Virus record (IMG/VR): IMGVR_UViG_3300021399_000103
Span: 32,001-96,000 of that record
Source: a virus
Lineage: Duplodnaviria; Caudoviricetes
Direction: 5' to 3' (one strand)
Length of the DNA: 64,000 nt
In this document: one piece after another, positions 2-48,130 of the stretch
Layout of the letters: each line of letters opens with the position of its first letter
Numbering within the stretch: the first letter of the stretch is position 1
Notes under the pieces: generated by a model
Databases searched by the model: none
The model's input: only the letters and a program-made list of their open reading frames with translations
What the model was told of the DNA's origin: nothing
Made by a program: the position numbers and the translations under genes

Positions 2-367
2 AAGTTTTATAATCCAGGAAAACTTGATATGTTTTTTGCGTTAAAAGTTATTGATTATTATACTAATTTATCTATTACTGAAAAACAGAGAGAAAATTTT
101 ATTAAGTTGTATGATGACTTTATGTCTTCTGGATTCTATACGGAAGTATTTCATGCAATTCCAGAAGATGAAGTTGGATATGTTTATACAGTAATGAAGG
201 AATCAGTAGATCAAATTTATAAATATCAAAATTCTGCTTATGGTATTTTAGATGCTATGAATACAGATTATGATAATTTAAGTTTTGATATTAAGAAATT
301 AACAGATCAACTTGGTAATAAAGAGAATGCACAGTTCTTGGATCAAGTTATGAGCAAACTTGGTTAA
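2..367 (+). CDS. Hypothetical phage protein, 5'-truncated; probable tail assembly chaperone by position
   Basis: Frame is open from position 2 (KFYNPGKLDMFF...) to TAA at 365-367. It lies directly upstream of the tape measure gene. Confidence 0.6.
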   Translation, partial: KFYNPGKLDMFFALKVIDYYTNLSITEKQRENFIKLYDDFMSSGFYTEVFHAIPEDEVGYVYTVMKESVDQIYKYQNSAYGILDAMNTDYDNLSFDIKKLTDQLGNKENAQFLDQVMSKLG

Positions 368-450: not shown

Positions 451-477
451 ATATTGGAGAGAAAGGAGCAGAAAAAT

Positions 478-3400
478 ATGCCAAAACAGTTAAATGTTAA
501 TTTAGCGTTTACCGCAGATACTGCGCAAGCTAAACAGCAGATACAAGAATTGCAACAATCTTTAGCTAAATTATCATCTGAAACTATAAAAAATAATATA
601 GGAACAAAGATGACAGAAGATTTGCATAAATCAGTTACCGCAGCAAGTCAGCTTAAAGATATGCTACAACAAGCGGTTAATCCTAAAACTGGAAACTTAG
701 ATTTGTCTCGTTTTTCTGAGCAATTAAAAGCTAGTGGTAGAGATATTCAAAGTTATGCACAAGATTTAAATAATCTTGGTCCAGAAGGAACTAAAGCATT
801 TATGCAATTAGCTCAATCAGTAGCATCTGCTGAAGTTCCTATGCGTAGAACAAATGCACTTGTAAAAGAGTTTGGAACTACATTAATGAATGCTGCTAGA
901 TGACAATTTTCAAGTAGCATGTTGCATGGATTTATGGGTGCTATTCAAGGTGCTTATGGATATGCGCAAGATTTAAATAGATCTTTAACTGATATTGCTA
1001 TTGTTACTGGAAATTCTGTTGATAATATGGCGGCATTTGCGGATCAGGCAAATAAATCTGCCCAAGCTTTAAGTACAAGCACATTAGCTTATACAGATGC
1101 TGCATTAATTTATTATCAGCAAGGTTTAAATGATGAAGAAGTTCAAGCACGTACTGAAACTACTTTAAAAATGTCTAATGTTACTAGACAATCAGCAGAA
1201 GAAGTTTCAAGTTATATGACTGCTATTTGAAATAACTTTGCAGAAGGTTCAGATAATCTTGAGTTATTTGCTGATAAAATTACAGCGTTGGGAGCAGCAA
1301 CAGCTTCAAGCTCAAAAGAAATCGCTACTGGTTTACAACAATTCGCAGCGTTAGGTAGTTCTTTAGGATTGAATTATGATGATGCAGTTGCAGCGTTAGC
1401 TACGGTAGTTGCGCAAACAAGACAATCAGCTTCAACTGTTGGTAATTCATTTAGAACATTGCTACAAAGATTTGAAAGTTTAAAACTTGGAAAAACTCTT
1501 GAAGATGGCGTTGGTTTAACGAAATATTCTGAAGCATTAGCTAAAGTTGGTGTTCAAGTTCTTGATGTAAATGGTGAAATGCGTGACATGAGTGATGTTA
1601 TTCAAGATCTTGGCGCAAAGTGACAAACTTTAGGTAGAGAGCAACAAAATGCGTTAGCGCAAACAGTTGGTGGCGTTAGAAACTCTAATACATTGATTGC
1701 TTGGATGGATCATTTTGATGAATTTCAAAAAAATTTAGACATTGCGGCGAATGCAGAAGGTGCACTTGAAAAACAAGCTGAAATATATGCAGAATCTTGA
1801 GAAGCTGCACAAAAGCGTGTGCAAGCAGCTTGACAAGCGATATATCAAGATTTAATTGATGATAAATTTTTTATAACTATTCTTAATGGATTTGAAAAAG
1901 TTTTAAAAGGTGTAGATAATCTTATTGATGGAATGGGCGGTTTAAAGGGTGTTTTAGGCGTTGTTGGGGCTTTGATTACCACTGTTTTTGCCGATGGTTT
2001 AGCGAAAGGTATACAAAATGCAGTATATAATTTTAAAGTGTTTACTGGACAAGCACAACAAGATGCAGATGCTTTAGCTGTTCAATTTAAAAATGTTGCT
2101 GATCAAATGGGGCAAGATTTACAGAGTCCTACGGCAACAGCTGAAGTTGGAGTGTTAAAAGATCAGATTGATTTTGCTTTAAAATTAAGACAGGCTAGTG
2201 ATTCAATTACTGAAGCTAATAAACAGCAGTTATTATCTTTAAATGAAATTACCAAGCAATATGGTGCTGCTTATGTTGAAGCGATGAAGTTAAAAGAAGC
2301 AGCTGAAGATCAACGAGCTAACGCTGCAGGAAATGCAAGAGAGTATGCTGCAAATTTAGGAAATACAGTAAAAGAAAAATCTCAAAATAGAGCAAAAGTA
2401 GATTCTGTAATAAACTCTGAAAATTTAGATAAATTAGCAAGTGATTTTACTGCTAAACAAGCAGATTTAGGAAAATGAGCATCTAATCTTGCTGACACTC
2501 AAAATTTTGATGTATGAAAAGATTCTTTATTGCCTAATTTAGAGGCAGAATTTAAAGTAGTTATAGATCAAAGCGCTGAATTGCAGGATGCTTTTGAAAA
2601 TGTAAATAATGTTTTGTCTAATAGTAAATCAACAGATGAGGAAAAGGCTGCTGCATTACAGCAATTAGGAGAGAAATTTAAAGATGTTGCGAATAATAGT
2701 GATTTAGTTAAAGAACATATTGCAGATTCAATGAGTACAGCAGCTGTTGATATAGCTGGTGGACCAGGACAGGCTGCGAATGAATTAGCACAAAAGATGA
2801 AGGATGCAGCTAATGCTCATTTTGAATTAAAGGCAGCATCAGAACAAGCTGATAATGCACAAATAAATTATAATGAACGTTTAAGATTAGCAAAAGAAGA
2901 ATTCGAAAAATTAAAGGGCAAAGTGGATGAATATTCTACCTGTCTCGTAACTTGTGCAAGAGGAATATCTCAATTATGAACTGCCTTTAATTCTTTGGGA
3001 AAGGTTTTAGATACTTTAAATGATAAAGATTTAACCTGAGCTGAGAAAATAAGAACTATGATACCATCTTTAACAATGGGAATTCCTACATTGATTTCTG
3101 GAATTACTACTTTAGGTGGAGCATTTGCTTCTTTAGGATGGGCCGCAGAAGGAGCTACCGCTTCTTCAATGACATTCATGACGGCATTAACAGCAACACC
3201 TTTAGGTCCTATTTTACTCGCGTTAGGTGCGCTTGCTGGAGCCTGATATGCATTTGATAAAATTGTTTATACTAGTGAAGAAAGATTGGCTGATTCAAAT
3301 AAAAAGCTTGAAGAAGCTAATGAGGCTTTAAGTAAAGCTGAAGAGGCAGCACAAAAAACAAATGATGCTTATCAAAAATTAGTAGATACTTTAGATGGAT

Positions 3401-6400
3401 TTGATTCAAAAAAAGATGCTATTAATCAATTAATTGAAGGAACCACAGAATGAAAAGAGGCTATTGCTGATTCTAACTCAGAGTTATTAGCAGCATTAGA
3501 AATGTCTGGTCAATTAAGTCAAGCGAAATTATCTTATGGTAAAGGTGGATTAATAAGTGTTGATAATGCAGATGAATTAAAATCAAATGCTCGTTCTGAT
3601 AATATTGCGGCTGATATAGGGGTTGCGCTATCTAGAATAAATGTTTCAAATGAAGAGAGTAATCATGCGTTAATAGAAGCAGTAAATGAAATAAGAAATT
3701 TAAATGATCATGAAGCGTATCAACGTGGGGATATTTCTTATGACCAATTAATAGATTATAATAAAACTATTGGTAGACAATCAGATGAAGAATTATTAAA
3801 TACAGTCAAAGATTGAGCGCAACAAATTGTTGACAATGGATACGCAGGTCAAGATTTAACTAGAGAACTTATTGAAGATAGCAACGGTCAATTGGCTTTT
3901 TTAGAAGAAATTAAAGACAGAAAAGATGTTCTTCAAGCAATTCAAAAAGCTGCTGATCAAATAGCTGGTGCTGATAAAGAATCAGATGCTTATAAAAAAG
4001 AAGTTGGGCGAATGGCTGCAGATTCAGCCGGATATGATACGTCAGGAATGTCTGGTTCAGCTTTAGAAAATTTTTATTTAAAATTATATGAAAACCTACA
4101 ATCTCAAGCTCAAACTGAATGGGAGGGGATGGATCAAAATCAGCAATTAAAATATTTTGCTGAAGGATCTGGTGGTCAATATAAATATGATGAAGCTACT
4201 AGTGAATTAATAGAAACTGCATCTAGTAAAATTGTTGAAAGTTCTGAAATTGCTCAAAGTGAAATTAAAACTCTTGGACAGGCAGCTTTGATTGAAGAAA
4301 AGGCGAGTGCTGCTGAAGCTCAAGACTTAATAAAATATGAGACAGAGTCAATAAAAAAACAACAGCAAGATCTTTATTCTAAAGTTAGTAATAATTTTGG
4401 TGACCAACTGACAATAGAAAATGCATCTACTTATTCAGATAAAATGGATCAATGATCTAGTGAGCAGATGAATTTTGCAATTCAAACAGATATGTCTCAG
4501 TTTGAAACAATCGAAGAATTTATTAAATATGTTGAAGATGCATGTAAAGAAGAGCATCATATTGATTTTGAAGTTAATGCAGATGATTTAGTTAATTTTA
4601 AAGGAAAAACAGAAGATCTTAAAGCTGAGGTCGATACTTTATCTCATTTTTTACAAAATAATATAGATAAATTTCAAGATTTGAGCGAGCATATTGTAGA
4701 ATGTAAAGAGGCCGCTGATAAAGTAGCTTATTCATTTTTAAGATTTGATGATGCTATGCAAGATGTTTCTAAAAATTATAAAAAATGGAAAAAAGCTCTA
4801 GATAGTGGAGATGTTATAGAAATGAATAATGCTGTTCAGGATTTAAAGAAAACATACGGGAATTTATTGGACATGGATGGATCGCAATTATCCGATGATT
4901 TTCTACGAGATTCAAAAAATTTAGATTTAATGAATACAGTATTAACAGGAACAGAAGAAGAGGCTATAGCGGCATATGAAGAATTACAAAAAATAGCTTT
5001 TATGGATTTGGGAGAAAATTTAATTCCAAATCTTGATGAAAGTAAATGAGAAGAAGCTTATAATACAGTTACAGATGTTGTGGATAGATTAAACTTAAAA
5101 TTAGGTGATCCTTTGACTCCAATGAATGGTGTTGATTATACAAATACTGTTAATTCATTAAATGAAATGTTGGCAGCCGTTGGAGATGATATAGATGCAG
5201 CAAATGCTATCATGGCAGCATCTGGCTGATCAGGAGAATTAACAGATCAACCAGTAGATGTTGAAGAGCCTGATTTTAAAGAAGATGTAAATGTTGATGT
5301 AGTTGAAAAAGATATTCCATATGAAGGTGTTCATGTTGAAACTACAGATACTGATTTTACTCCAAGCACAACTGGAACTGTAAATGGTACCGCTTCAGAA
5401 GTTCATTTTTCAAAAGGTGCGCAGACAACGACTCAAAATAAAAAAACTGCTCATGTTCAAGCATATCAAATAAAATCAGATTCAGCACTTCATTATACTG
5501 GAGGAGCTGCCCCAAAAATAAAAAGCATGCCAGCACGAAACCTTGGATCTGGAAATGGCGGTAAAAAAGGCGGAGGCTGTTTTGCTTCTGGAACTTTAAT
5601 TACTACAAATCATAATTATAAAAATATTGAAGATGTCAAAATTGGAGACATTGTTTTATCGTATAATGAAAAAACTAAAAAGAATGAATATAGTAAGGTT
5701 CTTCAAACTATGATTCATAATGTATATGAAAAAATCTATAGTTTATTTGTTAAAAACGATAAACTTAAAGTCACTGGCAACCATAGATTTTTGGTAATTC
5801 ATAATAATGAACAAAAATGAATTGAAGCTGCTGATTTACAAGTTGGTGATTTAGTATTATTTGCTAATGGTTCATTACATCAAATTTCTAAAATTGATAC
5901 GCAATTAAGGTTTATGACCGTATACAATTTTGAAGTTTCTAATACTCATAATTATTATGTTGGAGAAAATCAAATATTAGCACATAATAAAGGCAAGAGT
6001 GGTAGCTCTAAAGAAAAAAAGAAAAAAGTAGAAAAGCCAAAAGAGAAGAAAGAAAATATTAAAGAAAAAGATCGTTATCACAATATTAAAGAAGCTATTG
6101 AAGATTTAAATACTGAAATGGATAGACTTAATAAAAATAAAGATCGAGCTTATGGTAAGCAACGTCTTAAATATATGGATGACGAAATTAAAAAGACTAA
6201 AGATCAAATTGGTTTGACTAAAAAATATATTGCAGAAATAAAGAATTATTCAAAAGTAGATAGAAAAAATCTTGAAGATGCGTTAGGTAAAGGTTGGACA
6301 GATATTAATACAGGAGAATTGGTTGGTGGTCTTGGTCTTTCTGATGAAGAGATTAAAAGTGCCTTTGATGAAAAAGGCATTTTGAAAGATTATGAAAGTT

Positions 6401-9135
6401 TGTTTAATAAGATTCAAGATAAATTTGATCAAACTGCTACTAAAGCTTATAATGCAGCTGTTGATGAATATAATAAAGCTAAAGATGTATTTAATGTTAG
6501 CGATCAGGGTGATGCAGCGACAGAAGTTTGAGAAAAAGCAAAAGAAAAATTTGAACAAGCCGAAGAGGCTTATGATAAGCAAAAAGAAAACTATGATAAG
6601 CAATTAAAATATTTAAATCAATATGAAGATACAATGAATTTAATGCAAGAAAAAGAACAAGAATTGCTAGATCAACAAAATTCATTATTTGATAAAGCAT
6701 TGGAATTAGTATCGAAAAAAATTGAATTAAAAATAAGCATTGCTGATAATGAACAAAAATATCTTGAATGAGTTTATGATAATATAGGTGATAGCGCAGA
6801 TAGAGCTGCAGATAGAATTGCAAATCTTGGTAAACAAGCACAATCATCAGCGAAAAAAGTTCAAGCTAACGCAGAAGGCTTGCGTGACATGCTTTCTAAA
6901 GTCACAGAATCTTATAAAGGTCAAGTTGATTTTAGTGATATTAATATGACATTAGATATTAATGATCCAAAAGCAATGCTAACAACTATAAATCAGGTTA
7001 TTGAAAAAATGCAATCTAAGGGTTTAGAAGCGCCTGTTGAAGATATTGTAAATTTAATGAATGGTTATAGAGATGCTCTTATGGAAGAGTACAATAACCT
7101 TCGTGATATCAATGAGCAAGTAACTGAAAATATGGTTGATGCTTTTGAAGATATGATGGATAGCTTGAATGAGAATCTTGATAAGAATGATGGTTTCCAG
7201 AGTTTAATGGATCATTATAAAGAGATTCGTGATTTATTAGGTCAAGAGCAATTAGGATTATCTGATGAAGAAATGCGCAAATGAGACCAACAAATGCTTG
7301 ACATTAAACGCGACGCAGCGCAAGTAGCGCAAGCTAATTATATAGCAGCGCATGATGCAGCTGAAAGAGCACGTAAAGAATATGAAGAAGCAATTAAATC
7401 TGGTAATCAGTTTAGAATTGATCGTGCTAAAGAAGTTTTAAAGACAACTGAAGAAGCTGAAAAGGCAGCGCAAGACGAAGCCTTAACAAGATTAGAAGAA
7501 ACTTTACAAAAAGCCAAAGAGATGTATGAACAAGCATTGGAAGATAATGAAAAAGCTTATCAGAGATCTCTTGGTGGCGGTATTTTACCAACGCTTGATA
7601 AACTTCAAGATCAATTCGATATGCAAAAAGAAATTAATGATTTGCATTTAGATGATTATGAGAAGTATAAAAAACTTGGTGATTTACAAGCCAATATTAA
7701 TAAACAGTTAGCAAATAATCCTAATGTAAAAGTCCAAGGTAAATTAAAAGACTTGATGGATGATGTTAATGATAAAATGGCTGCTGGTGCTGAAATATCA
7801 GAAGGTGAAGCAACTATTCTTGAAAAGCGTTTACAGTTATTACAAGCTGAAGACCAGTTAATGGCAGCGCGTAATGCCAAGAGCGCGGTAAGAATGACTC
7901 GTGATAATGAGGGTAATTTCAGTTATACTTATACCGCAGATACGTCAAAGATAGAAGAAGCGCAACAGAATTATGCGGATAAGTTCTATGATCTATTGGA
8001 TTATGAACGTCAATATTCTGAAGATACTCAAGCTGCGATTTTACAATCTTATAAAGAATTCTTGGATAAGAGAAATGATATTATTAACGATGAGTCATTA
8101 ACGCAATCTGAAAAAGAAGCTTTATTACGTCAGTTAGAAAAGGATATGAAAGCTAAGGTTGAATTCTATACCAATGAAATGGAAATGGTTACTGGTGAAA
8201 TGGGTAGACTAAGAGACGAAGATTGGGCTGATATGGAAAAGACTCTTGGTAGAATGCTTGCGGCGCCAGATGATTTTGAAACTAAATTTGAAGATACGAC
8301 TCTTGGCAAAATGGCTCCAGCTTGAAAAGATGCAAAAGATGGATTAGAGGGCTTTGTAAACGCGGCAAAAACATTAACAGATGCTGATTTAGGTGCTTAT
8401 GGTAAATGGATTCAAGAAAATGAAATAAGTATGCAAAATGTTGGTTCATCAACCGCTGAATATGGAGAAAAATTAAGTAGTATATATGACGGTTTAAAAA
8501 CAAAGAGTACTGAAGCTAAAGATGCAGCTAAAGGTATGGCAGATCAAATGCAAGAAGACTTTCCGAAGATTCTTGAACAAGGTAGAGAATTTGATGAAAA
8601 ATTTAGTGGATATTTATCAAATATCACTACAAATTTAGAGAATGTTGTTAAAGCTATTAATGATGTTACTGCAGCACTATCGGGCGTTGATAAGAAATGA
8701 AATTTGCAAGATTTATTAAGTCAAGCTCTTGGAAAGAACGCAAATTCTAAAGATTCTGAAATTTTAGACGAAGATCCAACAGCTGGATTTGATACTGGTG
8801 GCTATACTGGAAAATGAGGTAGTACTAATGGAAAACTTGCTGTACTACATCAAAAAGAAATTGTATTGAATGAAGATGATACAAGCAATATGTTAAAAGC
8901 TGTTGATATTGTTAGGAGCATATCTAATGCTATTAATTTAAATAATGCTATTAATCCTAATATGTTTAGTAATATAATTGATTATAGTAAACTTGCGGCG
9001 GCCGGTACTACCGATCTACAACAGCAAGTTCATATTGAGGCATCATTCCCGAATGTGCAATCACATAGTGAAATTGAATTAGCATTTAATAATTTAATTA
9101 ATTCAGCAAGTCAGTATGTTAATAGAAAAAGATAA
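478..9135 (+). CDS. Tail tape measure protein, 2885 aa with TGA=Trp, containing an internal HINT domain
   Basis: RBS gaaaggag precedes ATG 478. Sixteen track fragments share one frame and join across TGA. The N-terminal core resembles TP901-type tape measure proteins (LTDIAIVTG, TVGNSFRTLLQR, YAES[W]EAA). A hydrophobic stretch lies at about 3058-3250, followed by long coiled coils and a C-terminal GFDTGGYTGK[W]G..LHQKEIVLN motif. Confidence 0.9.
5578..5988 (+). other. HINT (intein-like/BIL-type) domain, 137 aa, in frame within the tape measure protein
   Basis: Begins CFASGTLI and contains KNIEDVKIGDIVLS, VTGNHRF (block B TxxH), [W]IEAADLQVGD and VYNFEVSNTHNYYV. It ends ILAHN followed by Lys. 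There is no endonuclease insert. Confidence 0.92.
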
Positions 9136-9249: not shown

Positions 9250-12200
9250 ATGGCAGATTTAAATGCGAATAAAGTCGATGATATGCTTGAAGCGTTAAAT
9301 AGAGCTATTGAAATTCACACTAAGAATGCGGTGCAGGGATTACCGTATAACAAAAGTGAATTAGTTGAGATTGTCGATATTACTGAACGTAATCTGGGTA
9401 AGTATATCGTATGGAACGGCTCCGCAAGATATCAAGCTTTTTCTGAAAACACAGCCTATGAAATGGGAACAAAAGTTTATGTCAATATCCCGAATGATGA
9501 TTTTAAGGAACAAAAACATATTATTGGCCCGTATGTAGCAGATGGCGAAAGCGCGGTTTTTTATAGGAATCCATTAACAGATTTTCAGCCATTAACTGGA
9601 AATATCTTACAAGATAAGAAAGTTGGTGAAAAGAAAAATGGATATGATACTACGTATGGGTTAGTAGCTAATTATAATAAACAACCTTATTATAAAGTAG
9701 ATATTACTGAAGCAGACTATGAGTCAAATAAATACTTTATTAAAAATGAGAATGGTGAATATAAATTATGCGATGACGCAGAATTTGACGAAGAAAAGTT
9801 TTACTATTTATATGATGATAAAAAAAGTCAGGTTGTTGAAATATATCGAGCGCCAGACTTAAGTAGACCTTTTAAGTTAGAAAAACCTTCAGACCCAAAT
9901 TCAAAAGTATCATTAGACTTAGAGACACCGAGTTATCAAGGTTATAAATATATAGGCATTTCCGCAGAGTTTAAAACTTTATTAAATACATTCTCACCAA
10001 TAGCAGGAGATTATGGTATTGTTGTAACTATATGACATGCTGTAAAATATGATGTACAAGAAGACGCAGCTATTGAAAAACGAGATTATTTTTTAAGTGT
10101 TAAAGATATGATTGGAAACGTGTATAATTTTAATACATATTTCAAACAAGCTGTTTTATATGATATTTCTGCTTTTGGAGAAGTTCAAAGTATAATCGTT
10201 GGTTTTTATCAAAGAGGTAATTTTATTATGAGTAATAATAAAGAAGTACCTACTCATTATACTTTAAATGGAGATAGCCATCTTTTATCAGACAATATTT
10301 TGGTAAGAAATGTATCTGTTACTTTTGGTGATGATTTAATGGAACATAATGATAGGGCTATAATCTTTACTCGTAATGGAACCACTTATGATCCTGTACA
10401 AAAAGATATTCTTAATACTAAAACTATTGAGCTACGTTGAACCCATTTAAATTCTACTTCAGATGAATTTGAAAATTTGGATAGTTCCAAAGCAAGTTCT
10501 CAATGTGGTAATTATAAAATTCATTGATATGAAGATTCTATTCACGATAGAACTGATTATATTGCTTCAGTTCAAGCAGAAAGCGAAAATGTTGAAGTTA
10601 AAATGAAAGCATATAAAACTTGAGATGCTGTAGAAAGAAATGGGACTAGTACGGATGAGCAAATACAAGAAGCAAGAATTAATTTAATTAATACCTTTAA
10701 TTTAAAACAGGGCGTTGATTATCAATTTGATACTATGAATCCAGATAATCCTGTATTTATTGGAAAAATTGAGGAACGAATTAATCAAGTTATATCTAAC
10801 GCAAAAAATGCGTCAAACGTAAGTTCTTCAATAGCTGGTGATACATTAGCTGGGAGTGGATGAAAACCAATAGATGTTGCTAATACTGAGTGAAGTATAG
10901 ATTTTATTCCTAATTATAAACGTTCATATTCTAAGGTTATGGCTATCATAGAATATGATGAGGGTGATACTAAACACAAAATTAAATCTAATATATTACA
11001 ATTTGATAATTTAAGAATTACATCTAATTCTTTGTCTGATGATAAAGCGAGTGCTTTAAGAATTGGATTCAGCGATGGCACGGATGGAGATTATCCTATT
11101 TATAATGGAACTACTGGTGAATTATTAAGTAGAGAAGATGTAACTCGTGATCGTAAATTTCAAGCAACATGTAAATCATTGATTGATGATAAAGATTATT
11201 TAAATGGTAACGAAACTATAATTTGACAAATACCTAAAACTGGATCAATGATTTTAATGAATCAAACATTCTTAGAAGAAAATGGTTCAACTTTATTAGA
11301 TTCGACTGCGGATGAATTTAAATCATTTATTGGTACGTTGGATTATGATGCAAAATATTATTATATTAAACGCAGTGTTAGTGATTCACCAAATCCAGTT
11401 AATAGTAAACAAACATATCAGATTGCGCCATATTATAATAAGGCTAATACTAATAACACTATTTACTGCTATATAATTAAAAATAGTGATATATTTAAAA
11501 GTTCTGCTACATTAACTTTTGGTCAGCATGGAACATCTGGAACCGATTATACATTTAGTCTTGGGTTTATCCAGAAAATAGCTCCTAAAAAAGATGAAAA
11601 TAATAATATTATAAAAGATGGTAATGGTAATGAACTTTGAGGAGAAGTTATTGGGCAAGGTGATACAGCTTTAACTATTGGTGATGAGAATTATTTGGAA
11701 ATTGGGTTTGATTTATTTAATTCTAAAAACGAAAAAATAGATTTGACACCAGAGCAAAAAAATGCTATAATTAAATTATGAGTTGATAAAAAGGACTCAG
11801 AAAATAAAACAAGTATTGATGGTTTCTATTCTGGATTAAGTTTAGATGAAGATGATAATGTTGTTGGTAATGCTACTCATTTAGATTTTATCACAACAAA
11901 AAATGGTAATAATTACGATAGAGTTGCTGTAAAAACCAATAAAAATGATATTAATAATTTGCGATATATTGTTTTGCAAGCAGCGGTAACTAATAAAAAT
12001 GTTCAGACTGATGAATCTACATTAAAAGCAGTTAAATTTGTTCAATTGTTGCCTGTTCATGTTAGAGCAGCTGGAACTGATTGAGTGTTAAGAGGTTCTG
12101 ATTATATTGTTTATGATGATAAAGGTGCTAATCCTAGCTGTTATAATGATTATTATCAATTAATTGGTTCTAAAGGCGTAAAAAGAACAGGTTTTGAAAT

Positions 12201-15200
12201 TTATTTTGGCGCCGATATTTCGGAAGAGGCAAAAAATCGTGGCAATTATCCTCAGTTAATTGCTTTGAATACAATAAAAGAAAATATAAATGGAGAAGAA
12301 CAAGAAATAGGGATAGATTATAAACTACAAGTGCCTCCATTATATATAAATGGTTTGTCTAAAAATATAGCAATCACCCATGAAGATAATTTATATACTT
12401 GTCCGTTAGTTATACTTCAAAACAAATATCAAATACCTGCAATAAATAATTGGAATGGAGAATTAGTTGTTGATAGTGTAGGAAATAAAATTCTTGCTTC
12501 TATGGTTGGCGCTGGTCACAAAAATGAAAATAATACATTTACTGGTGTGTTAATTGGTGATGTAAGCCATGATAATGAAAAATTAACTGGATTATTTGGA
12601 TATGATGCTGGAGCAAGAGTATTTGAATTAAACACTAACGGTAAAGCATTTATTGGAAAATCTGGTAATGGTAGAATTTATATTGATGGGAATACTGGAA
12701 CTATTAAAAGCGCCGCCAGAGAGAGTAGTGACACAAAGGGCACAGAATTTAATTTAGCACAAAATTATATTGATGTTAGAAGTAGTAGTGATAATAATCT
12801 TAGTCGAATTCACTTGGATGTAACAACAGATAATGATACTGAGGCTTATTTTTCAATAGATAATGATAATGGCAATAGATTGATGCATATTGCTAATGAT
12901 GATTATTATTTACAAACTGATAATTACTCTGAAAAAAATAAAACAGGATTAAAATTAGACCTTAAACGAGGCATTTTAAATAGTTATGATAAAATAACTA
13001 TTAACGGCGGCAATGAATCAGAGATTTATTTTGGAAATACTAATAATTTTATTAAAATTGGGATAGATAAAAATAGTAATAGTTATTTTCAAATGGAAAA
13101 AAGAGTGGTCAGTGCAGATAGTGCTAATAATGCTTTAAATTCAGCTATTGTAAATTTAAGTAATGCTTTTATTGCGGAAGGAGAGTTAACTGAAGACTAT
13201 CGACCAATAACTGATGAAGATGGCAATAATATAGTAGTTCCTCAAGTTACAAATAGTGAAATAACTAATAAAAAGATTTCAAATTTAAAAACTTTTGAAG
13301 ATTATTGTGTTTTAAAAAATAATTTTTTAAGATCCAAACGATCTGATTTAGTAGTTGAAACTGAAAGTTTATCTGATATGGAGGAAATTTTAAATGAAGC
13401 ATGAATAAATTATGATACAAATAGAAAACAAAAACGTGATGAATATTTAAGAAAAATAGCACAATATCAGCAATATAATGATAATATTAGCAATATTCAA
13501 AATCTTAAAACAGAATTAGAAACGGCGCAAAATGATTTTGATTATAATACAGAAAATTCTTCTAAAAGAATATATTTTGATGGATTAACAAGCATATTGG
13601 GTGAGTCTAATGAATACTTAAATGAAGATGGAAAAACATATAATGAATATAATGATGAAAATATTAAAAATGAATATGTTGCTTATGAAGCAGCTGTTAT
13701 AGAAATTAATAAAGAATATAATGAAACAGAAGAAAGATTAAATAATTTATATAAAGCCGTACGAGAATTCGGTGATTTATATGAAATAGCTAATAACAAT
13801 TATCTTCAAGCACAACAAGAATTGGCTAGTTTAAATGAAGATCCTGATGCTTCCCCTGCTCAAATTCAAGAGGCAGAAAGGATTGTGCTTGAAAAAGAAG
13901 CAGCTAGAACAACAGCTTGAACTAATTATGCTAATAAACAAAAAGAATATAATGATGCGTATGAAAATAGTAATATCGAAAACCTTTTACGTATTGCTAA
14001 AGATAATGAAAATACTTTATTTCAAAAAAGAGAAAAATATTTAAACGCAAAAGAAACATTAGAACAAGCGCAAGAAGTTTATGATATGGTTTCAAATAAT
14101 TCTATAGGGGATACAATTAGTGATTTAATAGAATATTTAACGCAATCTGATAATTGAAAAAACCTAGAAGAAAATGATCTTTATTTAAATAATAATGAAG
14201 AATTAGCACATATGATTAAAGATGGAGAAAATGTTAATGATACTAGTAGTATTATAATTAATTATGAAAATGAAAACATTTCATATAAAAATCTTAATGA
14301 TAGAATTGCTAATAAAAAAGAAAATGTTAGAATTCTAACTAATGATTGTTCAATTATTGAAAAAGGGTATAATACATTATTAAATGCAATAAGAGAATAT
14401 AGCAATGCTCAAAATCTTGCCACCGGAACTTCTGGATCTATTGTAATAACAAATCAAGGAACGGAACGTATTAAAGTTGGCGAAAATTTTACTGTTGATG
14501 ATGAAGGTAATATTGAAGCAATTGGTGGCACTATTGGCGGTTGAGTTATTGGTAAAAATTATTTAAAATCAGCAAATGAACAAATATTTCTTTTACCAGG
14601 TACTCAATCTAGATGACGTCAAGTTATAAACGGAGGACTCTATACTAATTGAAAGATTTTGGTTGGATATAATAGGACAATTAATGTAGGATCTGATTAT
14701 TGAGACAAAAATCCAGATAAGAGAGCAGAAGAATATAGATTTGGCATTAATAATGAAGGTGAAATGTTTGCATCTGCTGGAAAAATTGGGGGATGAACTA
14801 TTGCTTCTGGATGATTATCAGCAGGCGATAATAATCAAGTAGTAGGAATGAATGTTACTAAGCGTAGCAATTATGATGCTTCAAAAGGAAGACTAAATTG
14901 GGCTTTTGTAGCAGGAGCACCAACCAACAGTTGAGCTGATTGAGATAAAGCACCTTTTAGAGTATCAAATACTGGAAAATTATATGCTAGTAGTGCAAAT
15001 ATTAGTGGAACTATTACCGCGACGGCTGGAAGTATAGGCGGATGTGAAATAAAAGATGGCGTACTTAAAGTTTCTTCTGCGAATATCACAAGTGTTAATG
15101 CAGATACAATTAATACTGGAACTTTAAGTGCCGATCGAATTGCTGCAAATAGCATTTCTGCATCAAAAATTAAAGTCGGAACATTAGATGTAAAAAATAT

Positions 15201-15417
15201 GTTATTTAATGGAAGTACGATTGGTCTTAATCGATTGGGTGTTTTAAAAAGTTTTTCAACTGATGCAAAAGATTTTCAATTTCCAAGTCAATGAAGCTAT
15301 ATTGATATTAATGGAAAAAAATATTGAGTCGGAAATAATTTAGTAACGCATCCAATAGCTGGGGTAAAATCTTGAGAAATGCAAGGTATTTATGTATTAG
15401 GGACTTATAGTTTATAA
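9250..15417 (+). CDS. Large tail-tip/central spike-like protein, 2055 aa (TGA=Trp)
   Basis: RBS aggagg. Same-frame fragments join across TGA. It has beta-rich segments (GKAFIGKSGNGRIYIDG), a coiled-coil block, and C-terminal G.IGG[W].I repeats typical of phage tail proteins. Ends TAA. Confidence 0.75.
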
Positions 15418-31316: not shown

Positions 31317-34300
31317 ATGGCTGATAAAATAAAGTTCTGACCTATTAGGGGTACAGAAGCACAAATTTTAGATGAGAACATATGTCCATATTATGATGGT
31401 AAAATCTATTTTGCGACAGATACAAATAAAATTTATCTTGATGCAAATGGAACTAAACATTTAATGGGCGGTGGTAGTTCTGGAATTGTTTATGCCAATG
31501 GTTCTGATACTCAAATAGTAAAAACTTCAGCAGATGAGACGGATTTTGGATATACAATTGCTTTAGATGCATTGGATAATCCATTAGTTTCTCCAAAAGA
31601 AGATGATTTAATCTTAAATTCTGATGGAAGATTCTTTAGAGTTACAGGTTATAATTCTTCAACTCAGTCAATTAGTGTTATATTGCTTGCGGTTAGTGGC
31701 ACTGGAGAAGGTGGAGGCGGTGGTTCGTCATTTAAAAGAAGATTTACAATAAATCTTGAAAAACCTAATCCATCAACATTAATTAATGGGCAGAATTTTA
31801 GAATTTATTTTACTGTTAATTCTGCAATTGATGCTAATGATTTTGTGTTAGATGAAGAATTTGTTGTTTATATAACATTAGCTGAAAAAGTTGCCGGAAC
31901 ATCGAATAGTTATATTAATTATTATTCTAGTCAAAAGGATGTTGCAAATGAAACTCGTTCTTACTTTGACATTAGTGAATTTTTAAGAGAATCTACAACA
32001 ACTAAAATTACTATTTATGCAAAAGGTATTGAAAATGGTACTAGTAAAGAATATAGCACTGATGTTACTACAACAGCATTAACTTTAAATAATTCTGCAA
32101 GTTTTTCTAATTTAAGTTTATTTGCATCTAATAGTGTTAACTTATCTTGTGAAGCTATTGGTAGAATGGATAAAATATTAAATTTCTACTTTGATGGGGA
32201 TCTTGTTGAAAGTAGACATTTGTCAGCAACATCGACAGAAACTCAAACTTATAAAGTGTCTCCAGAATTAGCAACTCAAGGTGCTCATACAGTTAGAATT
32301 ACTTTAAGTCAAGCTAAAATTAACACAACGACAGAGGAATGAGAAGTTCTTACAACTTTAGATCCTCTTGAATTTGAAATTGCGGTTTATGATAGTAATT
32401 CAGAAAATTTAACTCCTATCATTTGGTTAGGAAGTTATCAAAATGAATATTATAATTATGATAATATTCAAATTCCATTTATGGTTTATAATCCTGCATC
32501 TCCTGCAAGTACAATTGTTCATTTAAAGAAAAATGGACAGGATATTGCTGGTTCTCCAAGAACCATTGAAACAGATGCTACAAATTCTCGTTCATGGAAT
32601 ATCTTTGAAATTGCCGATGCAGATATAGATATGTTAAATTATTATTCTATTTCTTGCGGAGTAACAGAAAGAACTATTACATTTATGGTCAGTCAAGACC
32701 CAAATCGTTCAATGGAATTAATAAAGAAAGATGATTTGATTCTATGCTTTGACGCTACTGGTCGTTCAAACGCAGAATCTGAATCTAATAGAATTTTAAT
32801 TAATGATGCATTGACAAAAGAGAACATTCCAGCAAGTTTTATTAACTTTAACTGGTATAATAATGGTTGAATTTTAGATAATGATAAAAAAGCATGCTTG
32901 AGAATTAGTAATGGAGCATCTTTAGAATTACCTATTGGTTCAATGATTTTGAATGATGGCGATCATATTGATCAGCAATCAGTTAGCTTTGAAATGGAAT
33001 TTAAAGTTAGAAACGTTCAAAGCTATGATAACTTAGTTTCTAATACAACTCGTTATGAAGAGGATGACAGCTATTATGCAGCATTCTTAGCGCAGGAAAA
33101 ATATAATAACTATGACTCATTCTTACATGACTATTTACCTACTATTGGAAAAGAATATGATGATTTAAAATTTAGAAAAGTCCAAAAAGATATTAATACA
33201 GAAAGAGTTGTGGCAAAATATTATTCTGGTTCTGGCGCAACTTTAACTGGTTTTGGTATTGGTCCACAAGACGCATTCTTCTCTAATGGTACTGATACTG
33301 TAAATATTTCATTTATTGAGGATAAAGTTGTTAATTTTACAATGGTATTCTCATATCCAGATCAAAGATTATATATTTATAATAATGGTGTTATTACTGG
33401 AGTTATTGCAAATAGTATTAATGATACTTTTTCTATTGCAACAGATAAGTTAGTATTTAATTCAACATATTGTGATATTGATTTATATAAATTTAGAATT
33501 TATAAAACAGCATTAAATGTTAATGAAGTAGTTCAAAACTATGCTGTTGATAAGAAGAATATTGATATTTACGATCAAAACGCTTTAGCAAAAGCTAATT
33601 CCACATTGGGAGAATATCAATTTGATTATCAAGCAATGTTAGATTATAATGAAGCACATCCAAATGCTCCATTAATGCCTTATGTTATTTATGATACAAG
33701 CAGACAAACTTCAGATCAAATATCTTATGCTAAAAAGATTAAGATTCCTATTGATTTTGAATTTGTTAACACTCCATTAGAGCTAGCATATAGAAATGGT
33801 GAATTATTAGCTTTAGCTATTGCCGATGGATTATGTACTGCAAGTTCTAGTGCAGAAGTTAAAGAAGCTGCAGTTAAAGAATACTATTTGCATCATTGCC
33901 CTAGTTTTATTAGTACAAATGCAGAAATGGCAGTGCAAGGAACTTCTTCACAGTTCTATCCTAGAAGAAATTATAAGATTAAAACACAAACAAAATTTGA
34001 TGCAGATGAACAGAAAAGAACTCATATTTATCTAAATAGAGGACCGTTCTTAAATGATTTCTTAGCAGATCAAGAATTAACAAAGAATTTTACTGAATTT
34101 GCTGATCCTACGACAGGCGAAGCTTATAAGTTAAAATCTGCACAAGATTTCTTCTATATGGATAATTACACTGTTGGTACAACTAAATTCACAATGAAGA
34201 TTGATTATATGGAATCTTCTGGAACTTATAATACAGGTTTTGCTAATTTAGTTGCAAATGCTTATTCAAAGCATCCTTTAAGTGATTATAATAAAGCTGG

Positions 34301-37300
34301 AGCTTTTGCGAAAACTGTATATGAGAAAGATAGCAGTAATAGTTTTGATGAATCTAAGACTTATTATCAAGATTCAAAAGGAAAAACTAAAGCTGAAGTT
34401 ACTGCAGAAACATATCAACCAAATACATATTATATCACAGCCTATCAGCCATATCAGTTTAGTCATTTAAATGATTACAGAACTTCTGTTCAAGGTTATA
34501 GAGTTTTAGCTTTCCACAAAAAGAAGGTAGCTGGAACAAGTGGTAGTAATTATGAATTTATCGGTTTATACAACATGAACATTGACAAAGGTTCTGATGA
34601 AATGTATGGATTTAAACCCGATAAGAGCATTGTTGGTAGCTATTTAAAAAATAAAGCTATTAGCAAAAAGGCTGAATGTTGAGAATTTGAAAATAACTCC
34701 CGTACCTTCTGTTCTTTTAGAGATCCTTGGGATAGATATGAATTAAGTTTTAAAGGCCCAGATGCTGCATGGTTTGCTGAAAGAACCGCAGATTATCCGA
34801 ATGGAAGTAATGCATTAAATGGTGCGCTCGCGCCAGTTGTTGTAGATAGTTTTGAATATCGTTATAACACAAATGACGATTTTATTGATTTATTAATTGA
34901 AACTTCTACAGCAATAGATAGTCCAGATACTTGCGCGGATATTTTAAAAGAATTCGGCGTAGATATTGCTGGAAATGCTGAAGCCGCAGGAGATTTAATT
35001 TTAGATATTTATAAGAACTGAGAAAAAGCTGTTAAGTGGGTATGGTCTACTTCTACAAAAGATATTGCTTCTCTTGGTACTTATAATGAGATTGAAGTTG
35101 GTAATGAATATCAGCCAAATAAATATTATGTCTATAATGAATCAACAGGTGTCTATGAATTAGACTCTTCTCCTACTTACAGAGAAGGTATTGTCTACAG
35201 AAATAAAGTAAGCAGAGAAGAAACTGATACAGAAACAGGAGAGAGTATTACAATTGATGAATATGTAAATGCATTTGTTAGCGCAATTCCATATGTAAAA
35301 AATACATATTATATTAAAAATGCAGATAATACATATACCTTATCTGCCGATGATTTTGATGAGTCTTTAACATATTATCAGATTACAGAATATACAGATG
35401 AGCAACTAGCAACAAGAGCCGCAAGATTGGTAGAAAAAGATTCTGACGGAGTATTTGATCCTGCCGCTGAATATTATGTATATGATGGTAGTGTTCAGGT
35501 AAAAGATATTGTTACTGGAGTAGACACTCCAACAAAGAAGATTTCTTTAACTTCTGAATCTTATATTCCAAATACTTATTATAAAGGAAAAACTGTTGTT
35601 TATAATGGTAAGAGTTATAAGTATGATACTCAAGAATATCGTTCTGCAAAATTCTTTAATGAATTAGCAGATCATTTTGATATTGAATATCTTGCTACTT
35701 ATGTTATTATGACAGAAGTTTTTGAATGCTATGACTCTCGTGGAAAGAATTTAATGATGGCTTCTTGGGGCCCTCAAAAGGCTGGTGGAGATTACATCTG
35801 GTATCCAATTTTCTATGATATTGATACTCAGTTGGGTATTAATAATACAGGTATTCCTTCATTTGCATTTAATGTAGACGCAACAGAAGCTGGAAACTAT
35901 TCAACTTCTGATAGTATTCTTTGGATGAATTTCTATAATAGATTTAAAAAGTCTTATGTTTTACAGAAATATAGACATCTAAAGGGAATTACAACTGGAG
36001 TTCCTACAAGTTGGACTAGATTAGCTAATCCACCTCTTAAGAGTATTGACTTTATTGAGAGTTGGTATGAAACAGATCCAAACGTTTGCAATAGTATTGC
36101 AATGCGTGGTACAAGACCTATGATTGCAACAAATTTGGATGAATGGTATAAATATTTAACTATCACAAATCCAAAAGGTAAGTCTACTGGCGAAACAGGC
36201 TATATGGATGACAATGGAATCTTCATTGACGATAGTGGTAAAAATACTTACTTCTATGCATTACAGGGTGATAGATCTCAATCAAGACAACAGTTCTTGT
36301 CTAATCGTATTGAATATATTGACTCTTGGTTAAATGAGGGTAACTACCAGCGTGGTGGCGCTAATAGAATTAGAGGACGTGTTGCCGCAAACAATCCGGC
36401 AAAAACATCAGACCAATGGGTAGCGTCTGCGGAAGATCCTTACTTCAAGCCAAATGGTGAGAAATCACATGAATTTGATGCTGAATATTGGATTAATTTA
36501 ACTCCTGTTAGAAGTTCATACGTTACATTAAGTGATGATAATGAAGCTTATCCATCTCAGAAATATGATGGTATAAATCCAGTTAAATTTAATATTGACG
36601 CTATTGAGAATGGTGTTAAGAATAGTGCTAACTATCCTGAGCAGTTGTTATATATCTATGGTATGAATCAGATGGCTGATTTGGGTGAGATGCATAATTT
36701 ATACTGGCAAGAATTTGAATTATCTGGTGATGCTAGAAAATTAACGACTTTAAAATTAGGTTATGATGGTAAGGATAAAGATAATAATAACTGGTATAAT
36801 AGAAATATGAATCTTCCTACTATTCCTGGAAAGAAGCCTGAAGATGATTCTGGTTTTGGTTTACCTTTATTACAAGAAGTTAATTTAAGTAATATTACAA
36901 TTAATGCAGGCTCTCCTACATTGGATTTAACAAGTTGTGAAAAATTAAGAAATTTAAGAGCAACTGGTTCAAATTACCAAAATTTCTCATTTGCAGAAGG
37001 AGTAGCTTTAGATACATTATATTTACCAGACAGCATTACTCAACTACAATTAACAGAAGCCAACTTATTAACGAAACTTTTAACAGATTATCAAGCTCCT
37101 ACTAGAAATGCTTCTTCTGGAAAACTTGAAGCAAGACCTGGTTTATATATTGAAGGATTATTTGAAAATAATATTACAAATATTAATAATATTAAATTAC
37201 TTGGTGGCGGATTAGGATATGATAGTTATAAATTATTAGCTAAATGATATTCTATTAAAGATGCTTTAGATATTGTTGGAACAGACATTGGTAGTAATCA

Positions 37301-39119
37301 AATTACCATGACTAAAGTTAAATGAAGTCCATATATTCAATTAGTTGAAGGCGACACTTATATTTCAGCTGATTCTGCAAAATATTATATGGATGATGGT
37401 CACTATGGATTTGTTCCTTATTCATATAATAGAGATACTTTTAATGCTCAGGTACTAAGTGGAGAAATTTATAAATTAGATACTAGTATTCCTACTGCAA
37501 CGATTGATCAAATTGCGGACGTAGATATGCTTGCGCAAATGATTACAAATAATCATTATACAGCAGGCACTTCACAAGTTCCAAACATTACTGGTATTAT
37601 TTATGTAAATAATACTAATCCAATAGATGAATTATATATTAAAAATACTTTAGTTAAAAATTATCCTCAATTAAAATTCTTCTTTGCTAATGTAACAAAA
37701 TGTTATTCTGCAAAATTTGTTCTACCAAAAGAAGATGGTAGTTATTCTTATGTAAAATTTCAAGATGAAAATATTACAGAATTAACAATTCAAAAAATTA
37801 GTAGTTCAGATTGATTTGAAAATCCTTATAATTTATATGTTGCTGAGAAAGATAATTATGACTTCCATGGTTGGTCAACAACTAAAGATGATACTGGTTT
37901 AATTTCATCTGAAAATTGAGCTTCAGCCAAATCTTCAGTATTTGATCCAAACGTAAATGATTATATATTCTATGCTGTTTTTACTATTCATAATTATAAA
38001 ATGTCTTATTATGTTGGAACTGATTTAGTAGCAACAAAATATATTCCTTTTGGTTCTGTACTATCAGATCCTCAAATATTGCCATATTATACTGATGATT
38101 CATTAAATTTAACAGAAAATTATAAATTCTTAGGATGAACTCAAAATGAGAGAATTAAAATTGTGGAAAGAGCAAATCAGGCTAATCTTGTTGATTTTTC
38201 AAAAATGCTATCTGTTCAAGATTATAATTTTTACGCAGCATTTAAGAAACAATCTGTATATGATGAACCTACAGATTTAAAATATTTTGATTTTAGTCCT
38301 TTAACTTACGTAGACAAAGATCGTGTATCAGAAGCTTATGGTGATGATAGTTATAACATTACTGGATATATGATTTCTATTAAAGAAAATATGCAGTTAA
38401 AAGGTAAAATAACACTTCCTTCATATTATAATGGACTACCTGTTATAGCTATTGGCCCTACTTTTGGTAAAAATACAAATGCATCTGCGGGATGACAAGG
38501 CGGAGGTGCTGAAATTACCCATATTTTCTGAAAAGTTTCAGAATCAGAGCCTTGTAAATTAAGATATATTTCTAGTTATGCTTTTGCTGGAATGAATAAT
38601 GCACCTACAAATTTACAATATATTGAGCTTCCAGAAGGATTGCGCCATATTGACGGTTCAGCATTCTTCTGTGTTAAACATCTTAAAACAATTACTCCTA
38701 TTGTTAATGGCGATATTGAAGAAAATTCTATAATATTACCTTCAACGCTTAGATTTATTGGCGCCAACGCATTCAATGGCGCTTTTGCAGAAAGTGCTAC
38801 AATTAATCGAATTGTTATTCCGTCAGAAGTTGCTCGTTTAGGAAATAGAACTTTTGGTAATATTGATGCTATTGTTTCTTTAATTGAAATAGGTACTAAG
38901 GAACAAGGATCTTCTTTGGCGCAAATTGATGATGGTATTTTAGCAAATGGTGATAGACCAGGCAATCCAATAATTAATTATACAACAAGGGGATCAATAG
39001 AATCCTTTGTATTCTATTATAAATCACCAACTATAAGAGATGCGGTACAAGATATCGTAAATTTAAATTATATTAGAGCTAATAATGTTAGTTTTGTACC
39101 AGCAAATGATTTAGTCTAA
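31317..39119 (+). CDS. Giant multidomain tail-region protein, 2600 aa (TGA=Trp): LamG-like, CotH-kinase-like, LRR, InlB B-repeat-like and BspA-type LRR domains
   Basis: RBS agaaaggag; seven same-frame fragments. LamG-like: DLYKFRIYKTALN..EVVQNY. CotH-like: QGTSSQFYPRRNYKI, MKIDYMESSG, DSRGKN, WYPIFYDIDTQLG. LRR: LQEVNLSN, LDLTSCEKLRNL. B-repeat-like: YDFHGWST, YKFLG[W]T. BspA-type: IELPEGLRHIDGSAF, LPSTLRFIGANAF. Confidence 0.75.
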
Positions 39120-45934: not shown

Positions 45935-48130
45935 ATGGCGTTAAGAGTATGATTGCCGTTAAATGGCGATCTTGAAAATAAAGGGATTAGTAATATTTCA
46001 ATTTCTACGAATAATTTTTCTATTAATAATTTAGGAAAGTTAGGCAAATGTTATCAGGGTCATGGTTTAACTCATTTGTCTCAAGAAATATTAAATAATA
46101 ATTGAAGTATTGCTTTATGGGTTAAAGAAACTAGTGCTTGAAGTCAATATAATCAAATTCTTTTCTGTAAAAATTTAAAAGATTCTAGTGATTGCCAAAT
46201 TTATTTTTCTATTATAAATGGTAAATCTTTAAATCTTGGAATAAATGGTCCAAGTGGAACTGGTTCTTATAACTATAATTTTAATTTAAATACCTGATAT
46301 CATGTAGCAGCAACTTATGATGGATTAAATTATTGTTTATATATTAATGGAACTTTAGTAAAAACAGGTACTTGTACAACAGCATTTAATGCAAATAAAT
46401 TAAATCTTGGATTTGGATGTAGAAGTGCAAATGATAATGCTACATCTGGAACAGGTCAAACCAGCACTCAATGTTTTAATGATTTTAGGTTATATGACCA
46501 TTGTCTTTCTCCATTAGAAGTAAAAGAAATTTCGCAAGGGTTAATTTTACATTATAAATTAAATGGATTTAGTGGTGGAGTAGGTGAAAATCTATTACCT
46601 AATACAAGTTTTAATGGAATATCTCAAAAATATACTTTAAATAGCGGTACTGAGGGAGGATTTAGGTATGTACCTATTTCTGTTAATAGAAGCACCTTAT
46701 ATACAATAAGTTGTTATTTACGAGGTAATGCCAATATGACATTGTATCGTATTTGTTCTGGAGGTAATGAATCAACTCCTTGAGTAAATAGAAGTGATAT
46801 GTCTGAAACAGAATATAAATATTTTAGTATTACTTTTACTTCTCCAGCAGCAAAAGATATTTCTCAAATTTATATATGCACACGATATGGGACTTCTAAT
46901 TCTCAAACTGGAGATTGATTTGAAATTAAACCATATAGTTTAAAAATGGAACAAGGTTCAATTGCAACTCCTTGAATTCCCGTATTATCAGAAATTGGTA
47001 TAGATACTACTAAAATTGTAGATTCTTCTGGTTATGGAAATGATGGAACTGTTATTGACTCATTAACAACTGAGATAAGTAATACCGATGGAAGATATTT
47101 AATAGCAACTAAATTTCCCACAAATACTGCACATATTCAATTACCAGTAATTACTTATAGTAATTTTGGTTCATCATATACTTTTTCTTGATGAGAATAT
47201 TTAACTACTGTTAGTAGTAGTCCAATGCCATGAGGTTTTAGTGATGGTAATAGATTAAATTGTTATCATGTAAATACAAGTATGTTATGTTGAAATACAA
47301 GTAATGGAACAAGCAATCCATTTGAACCAAATATAACTAGTACAAGTTTATTAAATGGATGACATCATTTAGTGATAACTGGAAATGGAACGGTCACTAA
47401 TTTATATATAGATGGTGAATATAAAGCAAAAGCAAAAACCTATGTTGGATTAACTGGAACTCAAATATGACTAAGTGGTTGAGCAAATGCTACTGGTTAT
47501 TCAATGGTTAATAATAAAATGTCAGATTTCCGTATTTACGCAACCGCTCTCAGCGCAGAAGATATAGCCACGTTATATCATACTCCGGCGCAAATAGATA
47601 ATTTAGGTGGAGTACATGGATTTGAAATGAATGAAATAAGTAGTAATATTTTAACCTTAAAATCATTTGAACAAGGCGGTCTTGGCGATGCAAATGGTGC
47701 TGAAGTCGCTTTAAATACGAGAATACGAACTCTATACTTACCTATTATTCCAAACGCGGAGTATAAAACTTTTACTTCTTCTGGTTTTGTAGTTAGAGGA
47801 GTTCATTTTTATACTGAAAATCAATCTTGAATTTCATACTCATCTGGAAATTCTCAAACAATGAATTTTATTATACCCGAATCTTGTTATTATATAAGGA
47901 TTGTTTTCCAAAGAACAAATGCAAATACAGAATTACTTCTTAGTAATTTAAATTTAGTTAATCCTGTTTTAACTGGAATTATTGAAAAAAATTCATCATT
48001 GTTAAATGATGAATATAATATAAATATAAATAAAAATGGCATTATTTATGGAAATCATTTTAATATATCTAAAAAAAGTGGTATTGATAAAACGGGTATT
48101 ATTGAAGCAACAAATTTTATAGAAAAATAA
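45935..48130 (+). CDS. LamG/concanavalin-like lectin-domain protein A (two LamG domains plus a CBM-like insert), 731 aa (TGA=Trp)
   Basis: MALRV[W]LPLNGD; NT[W]YHVAATYDG..LYING; FNDFRLYDHCLS..EVKEI; GENLLPNTSF..KMEQGSIATP[W]IP; MSDFRIYATALSAEDI. Confidence 0.8.

Follow-up and report, generated by a model that had tools for sequence, protein, structure and literature searches.

An invariant lysine at +1 and a possible self-excision route for a Hint domain within a phage tape measure protein

What is a catalytically intact Hint domain doing in the middle of a phage tape measure protein (TMP)? TMPs are rulers, anchored in the baseplate by their C-terminus and visible in the tail tube as density approximately 20 Å wide (PMC5099701, PMC11445458), that set the length of the tail at 0.145 nm per residue (PMC5099701); because this density is so narrow, a folded Hint domain most likely has to leave the protein. 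The window considered here—the whole stretch of DNA analysed, 64,000 nt in length—comprises positions 32001–96000 of a 176-kb phage genome, and the original prediction for it was of a non-splicing domain, co-opted by the phage as an autoprotease. The features of the gene, in window coordinates, are:

2–367, plus strand: 3′ end of the upstream gene, a YomO-like tail assembly chaperone (inferred for the window by synteny)
463–468, plus strand: AAGGAG, the Shine–Dalgarno / ribosome site of the TMP gene
478–9135, plus strand: TMP gene, 2885 aa under table 4 (TGA=Trp); PF10145, E 3e-29, and PHROG families
1051–1674, plus strand: PhageMin_Tail (TP901-type TMP core) domain, N-part
1921–1977, plus strand: hydrophobic segment 1 of the N-part, residues 482–500 (Kyte–Doolittle scan)
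3184–3240, plus strand: hydrophobic segment 2 of the N-part, residues 903–921 (Kyte–Doolittle scan)
5545–5577, plus strand: Gly/Lys-rich N-flank, with Gly at −1
5578–5988, plus strand: type A BIL / PT-HINT domain, 137 aa, Cys1701–Asn1837
5578, 5773, 5782 and 5818, plus strand: Hint key codons Cys1, Thr66, His69 and Trp81 (TGA)
5926, 5947 and 5983–5988, plus strand: Hint key codons block-F Asn117, His124 and His136-Asn137
5989–5994, plus strand: Lys+1 and Gly+2, the proposed ligation nucleophile and its neighbour
5989–9132, plus strand: C-part, 1048 aa, charged and probably helical
8770–9129, plus strand: conserved TMP C-terminal region, at the end of the C-part

The protein is placed among siphophage TMPs by its core domain, by its conserved C-terminus and, through synteny in relatives, by its position after the tube and chaperone genes (the order there being YomU-like tube, YomO-like chaperone, TMP). 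PHROG TMP families 4211 and 34405 match the N-part as well as the final 120 residues, and the conserved N- and C-termini of the TMP lie on opposite sides of the Hint domain. Across the TMP family, with the Hint present or absent, the C-part measures 1050 ± 57 aa (range 926–1260) and the N-part 2040 ± 306 aa (range 1539–2802); since the one is near-constant in length while the other varies, the Gly-rich linker that separates them is a true boundary. This is the best support for the view that the Hint acts as an autoprotease, cutting the TMP in two: an N-part of variable length, which holds the hydrophobic segments, and a C-part that stays at about 1050 aa. For reasons developed below we take this view as a serious rival but lean against it. 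Further downstream, at 9250–57996, the window contains a series of putative tail genes of very large size (2055, 1223, 920, 1901, 2600, 1034 and 974 aa). Most of these match nothing in Pfam; Laminin_G_3 lectin domains occur in two (45935–48130 and 51136–53472), and BspA-type leucine-rich repeats in one (31317–39119).

Turning to the domain itself, its description in the original prediction proved exact: a complete 137-aa Hint at residues 1701–1837 (nt 5578–5988), bearing Cys1, a TxxH motif (Thr66, His69) and a terminal His136-Asn137, followed by Lys at +1 and set in a linker between parts of 1700 and 1048 aa; a length of 137 aa leaves no room for a homing endonuclease, again as claimed. The match to PF07591 (PT-HINT) scores 55.2 bits (E 1e-14) against a curated cut-off of 27.7, and the 176-kb genome contains no other match to PT-HINT. 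By sequence, the best match is C. thermocellum BIL4 (E 8e-17); by structure, the predicted model shows the Hint fold, with pLDDT >90 across most of the domain, and its best Foldseek match is 2LWY (E 2e-12, rmsd 1.5 Å, TM 0.91 by target) followed by Tetrahymena BIL2 (E 3e-11). The domain thus belongs with the type A BIL / PT-HINT domains, having its catalytic residues intact and without a canonical +1 nucleophile.

Cys1, His69, His136 and Asn137 are found in all 172 homologues, with Thr or Ser at position 66. The crude dN/dS of the Hint is about 0.17 against close relatives and 0.3–0.4 between tandem copies, and at distance the Hint is better conserved than the C-part (60% versus 23% identity); the domain is kept under purifying selection. 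At its borders we see neither a target-site duplication nor any meaningful DNA repeat. The invariance of the catalytic residues speaks against a Hint that stays unprocessed in the virion, whether triggered late (at infection) or serving as a passive folded spacer, as does the difficulty of fitting one to three folded 137-aa domains per chain into the TMP density of the tube; a conditional trigger is conceivable, given that activation of BIL2 is linked to the binding of zinc (PMC8616854), but we regard this explanation as highly improbable.

Trp81 of the domain is encoded by TGA (5818–5820), a position aligned to Trp in 170 of the 172 homologues; because the residue is conserved, the reading of TGA as Trp is correct, and code 25 (TGA=Gly) is ruled out. 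The original prediction stands on this point, but not in its suggestion that the domain is ‘adapted to the phage code’: 22 of the 29 Trp codons in the TMP gene are TGA (7 are TGG) and the same domain occurs in both standard-code and recoded phages, so the codon is uninformative about the domain and only reflects its residence in the TMP gene. Over the whole genome, TGA is read as Trp chiefly in the plus-strand late genes (the region at 9250–15417 of the window, with 24 TGA to 3 TGG codons, being an example) and rarely in the minus-strand block, most minus-strand genes having no TGA=Trp; the same strand and late-gene distribution of recoding has been described for recoded gut phages (bioRxiv 10.1101/2021.08.26.457843). 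The phage genome has 28 tRNAs and, in addition, a weak tRNA-Trp(CCA) at C1:143983–144053; within it we found no release factor gene and no convincing candidate for a UCA suppressor tRNA / tRNA-Trp(UCA).

Textbook protein splicing depends on a +1 residue that is Cys, Ser or Thr; BIL domains, for their part, are regarded mainly as self-cleavers. In the TMP linker, the +1 residue is Lys in 157 of 157 complete copies (from 122 TMPs), making it as fixed across the TMP Hints as the catalytic residues themselves; +2 is Gly in 98% of proteins, −1 is Gly or Ser in 99% and −2 is mostly Gly, whereas residues −12 to −2 and +3 to +12 of the linker vary among carriers. The 157 copies are not independent, as the TMP Hints form one clade, and Lys is also the commonest +1 residue in other related Hints, but there it reaches only 15 of 52 and 19 of 49 (roughly 30–40%), with 13 residue types seen at +1 among 52 related BIL/PT-HINT domains. 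Lys+1 is kept even in eleven proteins whose flanks contain at least three Arg but no further Lys; the change from AAA to AGA, converting Lys to Arg, is a single transition. That Arg never replaces Lys+1 favours a need for the amine over one for charge alone. For an autoprotease, Lys+1 would only tune C-terminal cleavage or supply a needed new N-terminus, and the failure to find Arg or any other residue at this position weighs against such a role. A non-nucleophilic function for the lysine is allowed, because Lys is the commonest +1 residue of the subfamily and some distant arrays have Arg instead or end in His-Asn-Lys-stop.

A second line of evidence comes from homologues with tandem copies of the domain. 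There are 30 of these, 25 with two and five with three complete copies (65 copies), joined by linkers of 2–6 residues (KG, KGG, KGGG or similar); copies within one protein are 54–73% identical, and copy number shifts eight times on the tree. A predicted model of a tandem contains two separate Hint units (pLDDT 79), an outcome that favours none of the mechanisms over another. C1, T66, H69, N117, H124, H136 and N137 are retained in each of the 65 copies; at every one of the 35 internal junctions His-Asn-Lys still precedes the following Cys, and the linker is never shorter than two residues. As one copy is enough to sever the chain, the internal junctions are unneeded for cutting alone; likewise, stripping the domain off both fragments requires no more than the Cys of the first copy and the Asn of the last. 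Extra copies would be cheap for an autoprotease if any single cut is enough, but not one of the 35 redundant junctions has decayed; their preservation is, we infer, what would be expected if each unit excises itself and rejoins its flanks.

Our preferred reading, to which we would give an even chance, is that the Hint excises itself and rejoins its flanks via the invariant Lys+1, restoring one continuous TMP. Cys1 would form a thioester with the Gly or Ser at −1, which the amine of Lys+1 would then attack: through its ε-amine, to give a Gly-ε-Lys isopeptide or, alternatively, through the α-amine freed by cyclisation of Asn, to give a normal peptide bond. The 137-aa domain itself would be freed through cyclisation of Asn137. 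An irregular junction, and the few residual KG(G) residues left by each copy, would be tolerated in a Gly-rich linker, and the element would be inherited vertically, be dispensable, and expand and contract in tandem. We are more doubtful of the ε-isopeptide form of this Lys-dependent re-ligation in particular, and make only tentatively the broader suggestion of an unrecognised splicing class, wherein Lys+1 replaces Cys/Ser/Thr with its ε-amine as nucleophile, the TMP is held together by one to three Gly-ε-Lys isopeptides, and the same occurs in Tim44-like proteins (see below).

There is biochemical precedent. Type A BILs form an N-terminal thioester, are cleaved at Asn, and ligate when a free amine attacks, cleavage being the dominant outcome (PMC4031507); for Tetrahymena BIL2, ligation through the ε-amine of Lys, producing an isopeptide, is reported (PMC8616854). 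The label ‘non-splicing’ given by the original prediction sits poorly with this capacity of type A BILs for amine-dependent ligation (PMC4031507, PMC8616854), with the invariance of Lys+1 and with the kept internal junctions; its statement that such domains mainly autocleave is borne out by the predominance of cleavage products (PMC4031507), which favours an autoprotease, as does the release of toxins by PT-HINTs through autoproteolysis (PMC3482391). If a TMP made of several chains, with as many as three copies, is to assemble, ligation must proceed with much higher efficiency than type A BILs have shown to date. Our proposal has real weak points: characterised type A BILs yield mainly cleavage, and tandem arrays would multiply the cost of failed splicing; moreover, a neutral insert between two Gly runs, with no endonuclease, should be lost easily, yet this one persists under purifying selection.

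The same chemistry could also operate between chains, the thioester at the Gly-Gly or Gly-Ser end of the N-part being moved to a Lys elsewhere in the style of ubiquitination by BIL2; candidate acceptors are the Lys+1 of an adjacent TMP chain, or some other protein of the virion or the host. The −1 Gly or Ser and mostly Gly −2 resemble the tail of ubiquitin, TMPs are oligomeric such that partner chains are close (PMC11445458), BIL2 joins its N-extein to other proteins in trans (PMC8616854), and a cross-linking function would give the host a reason to retain the domain. Set against this, Lys+1 in cis is both the nearest amine and the conserved residue, and empty alleles work without the domain; we consider this explanation improbable.

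A region search gave 120 long homologues, 116 with the Hint in the corresponding linker and four close homologues lacking it; a search of 50%-identity representatives gave mostly empty TMPs. Of 154 TMPs in a tree built from flank sequences, 99 are empty and 55 have one to three copies, proportions that are not to be read as frequencies because the first search favours carriers; the tree needs 12 gains or losses, at least nine of them forced by strong branches. The clade of 16 to which our query belongs has 12 carriers and four empty members: on the Hint tree its Hints group together (support 88), and monophyly of the carriers, to the exclusion of the four empty alleles, is rejected by the flank sequences (AU p 3e-13). 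Taken together these results give at least three losses in the clade, the simplest reading being vertical inheritance accompanied by that loss. In the empty sister P0044 the Gly-Lys linker is unbroken, and the downstream half of this linker matches that of carrier P0007. Given the 99 of 154 homologues that are empty, and losses that leave a continuous linker, the Hint is dispensable.

This comparison of TMPs with and without the domain, suggested by the original prediction as a check, upholds the linker as a boundary but not the idea of ‘built-in maturation’, the Hint being absent from most homologues and repeatedly lost. An autoprotease would require empty alleles to be cut by another protease, or to go uncut. 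It would also, if acting early after folding, presumably part the ruler from its baseplate anchor, and no naturally split TMP was evident at the linker in a by-eye check of short matches. In its favour, long vertical persistence without an endonuclease suggests some benefit, and TMP cleavage has been proposed for JBD30 on the T5 model (PMC11445458). Of the co-opted autoprotease, then, the intact BIL-like Hint, the missing +1 nucleophile and the boundary remain as support, with repeated loss, invariant Lys+1 and intact arrays against. Two TMPs of this family contain a second, distant Hint (P0045, residues 3117–3263; P0055, residues 3132–3278), which shares 31–35% identity with the linker Hint and has Met or Ile as its +1 residue. 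It lies about 115 residues from the C-terminus, close to the cut proposed for JBD30, and within this protein family may represent a genuine counterpart of the cleavage type.

GenBank phage matches were all distant (<40% identity), and no cultured phage with the element was found among them; those from Ruminococcus and Dickeya phages, in which the +1 residue is Ala, Ser, Leu or Thr and the protein is not a TMP, were rejected as the same element. Viral contigs gave no match in a single-sequence search and 16 loci with an alignment query; the 24 Lys+1 copies in these were excluded as evidence, the pattern having contained HNKG. Scanning of bacterial genomes was done with patterns leaving out the +1 residue, and led to Tim44-like membrane proteins, in which the same G|C...HN|KG layout is found in a Gly-rich tail, after a signal peptide:

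L065:3125–5728, L082:3911–5680 and P0331–P0450: Tim44-like proteins with tandem Hints

The Tim44-like homologues (n=120) have one to five Hint copies each, with Lys+1 in 278 of 283, Gly−1 in 273 of 274, and KG or KGGG linkers. Their Hints are about 30% identical to those of TMPs and separate from them in the best tree, a common origin not being rejected (AU p 0.39). Invariant Lys+1 together with intact arrays, in two unrelated host families, would predict efficient amine-based ligation. Other relatives also deserve description. The nearest to the TMP Hints, with Lys+1, are in other large proteins (FGE-sulfatase-like, Ig-like), at least some from phage contigs:

L023:4768–7344, P0264 (L008), P0266 (L009) and P0263: large-protein Hint relatives

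L023 has three tandem Hints, and two of the large-protein relatives end His-Asn-Lys-Arg-stop. P0282, P0284 (L006) and P0291 have C-terminal arrays of two to three Hints that terminate in His-Asn-Lys-stop; the linkers are R, RA or KA, with Arg instead of Lys at the first junction. The closest canonical relatives (P0292–P0330) are inteins of DNA cytosine methyltransferases, with Cys+1 and with or without a central insertion, nested among BIL-like domains.

Were ligation to be true, it would extend intein chemistry, provide a genetically encoded single-domain isopeptide ligase, and help to explain how BILs persist without an endonuclease; were cleavage true, a large siphophage tail could be built from a ruler severed some 1050 residues from its anchor, an outcome that bears on how very long TMPs define tail length.

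In the literature, with subscription journals mostly outside coverage, we encountered no account of tandem Hints with Lys+1 as a family, nor of the TMP element. Its closest counterparts are C. thermocellum BIL4 (2LWY) and the type A BIL / PT-HINT domains generally, with which it shares a length of ∼137 aa, Cys1, TxxH, a His-Asn end, no endonuclease, no Cys/Ser/Thr at +1 and location in a variable region; it is distinguished by invariant Lys+1, its place mid-chain in a virion structural protein, and head-to-tail arrays. A pretoxin HINT of polymorphic toxins was rejected, since the C-part is a conserved 1050-aa TMP segment and no variable toxin domain follows. BIL2 of Tetrahymena BUBL1 (6TMM, 6Y75) is similarly a Hint without a canonical +1 nucleophile, but is eukaryotic, only 26% identical, and located between ubiquitin-like domains, its acceptor Lys being in ubl5 or another protein; the available portion of PMC8616854 contains no Lys+1 rule for it. 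The TMP Hint resembles class 1 mini-inteins in its patchy occurrence at a single site, in the continuity of the empty alleles, and in Cys1 and His-Asn, and canonical inteins are on record in actinobacteriophage TMPs (bioRxiv 10.1101/2025.01.02.630785). We rejected assignment to this class on account of Lys in 157 of 157 copies at +1 in place of Cys/Ser/Thr, and a site that is a variable Gly/Ser/Lys/Arg linker rather than a conserved motif; the TMP Hint differs further in having Asn at block F4 (172 of 172), where Asp is described for class 1, and in its tandem copies. Lastly, there is likeness to the processing of siphophage TMPs, cutting being known or proposed for T5 and JBD30; the cut proposed in JBD30 is ∼90 residues from the C-terminus (PMC11445458), as against ∼1050 for the TMP Hint site.
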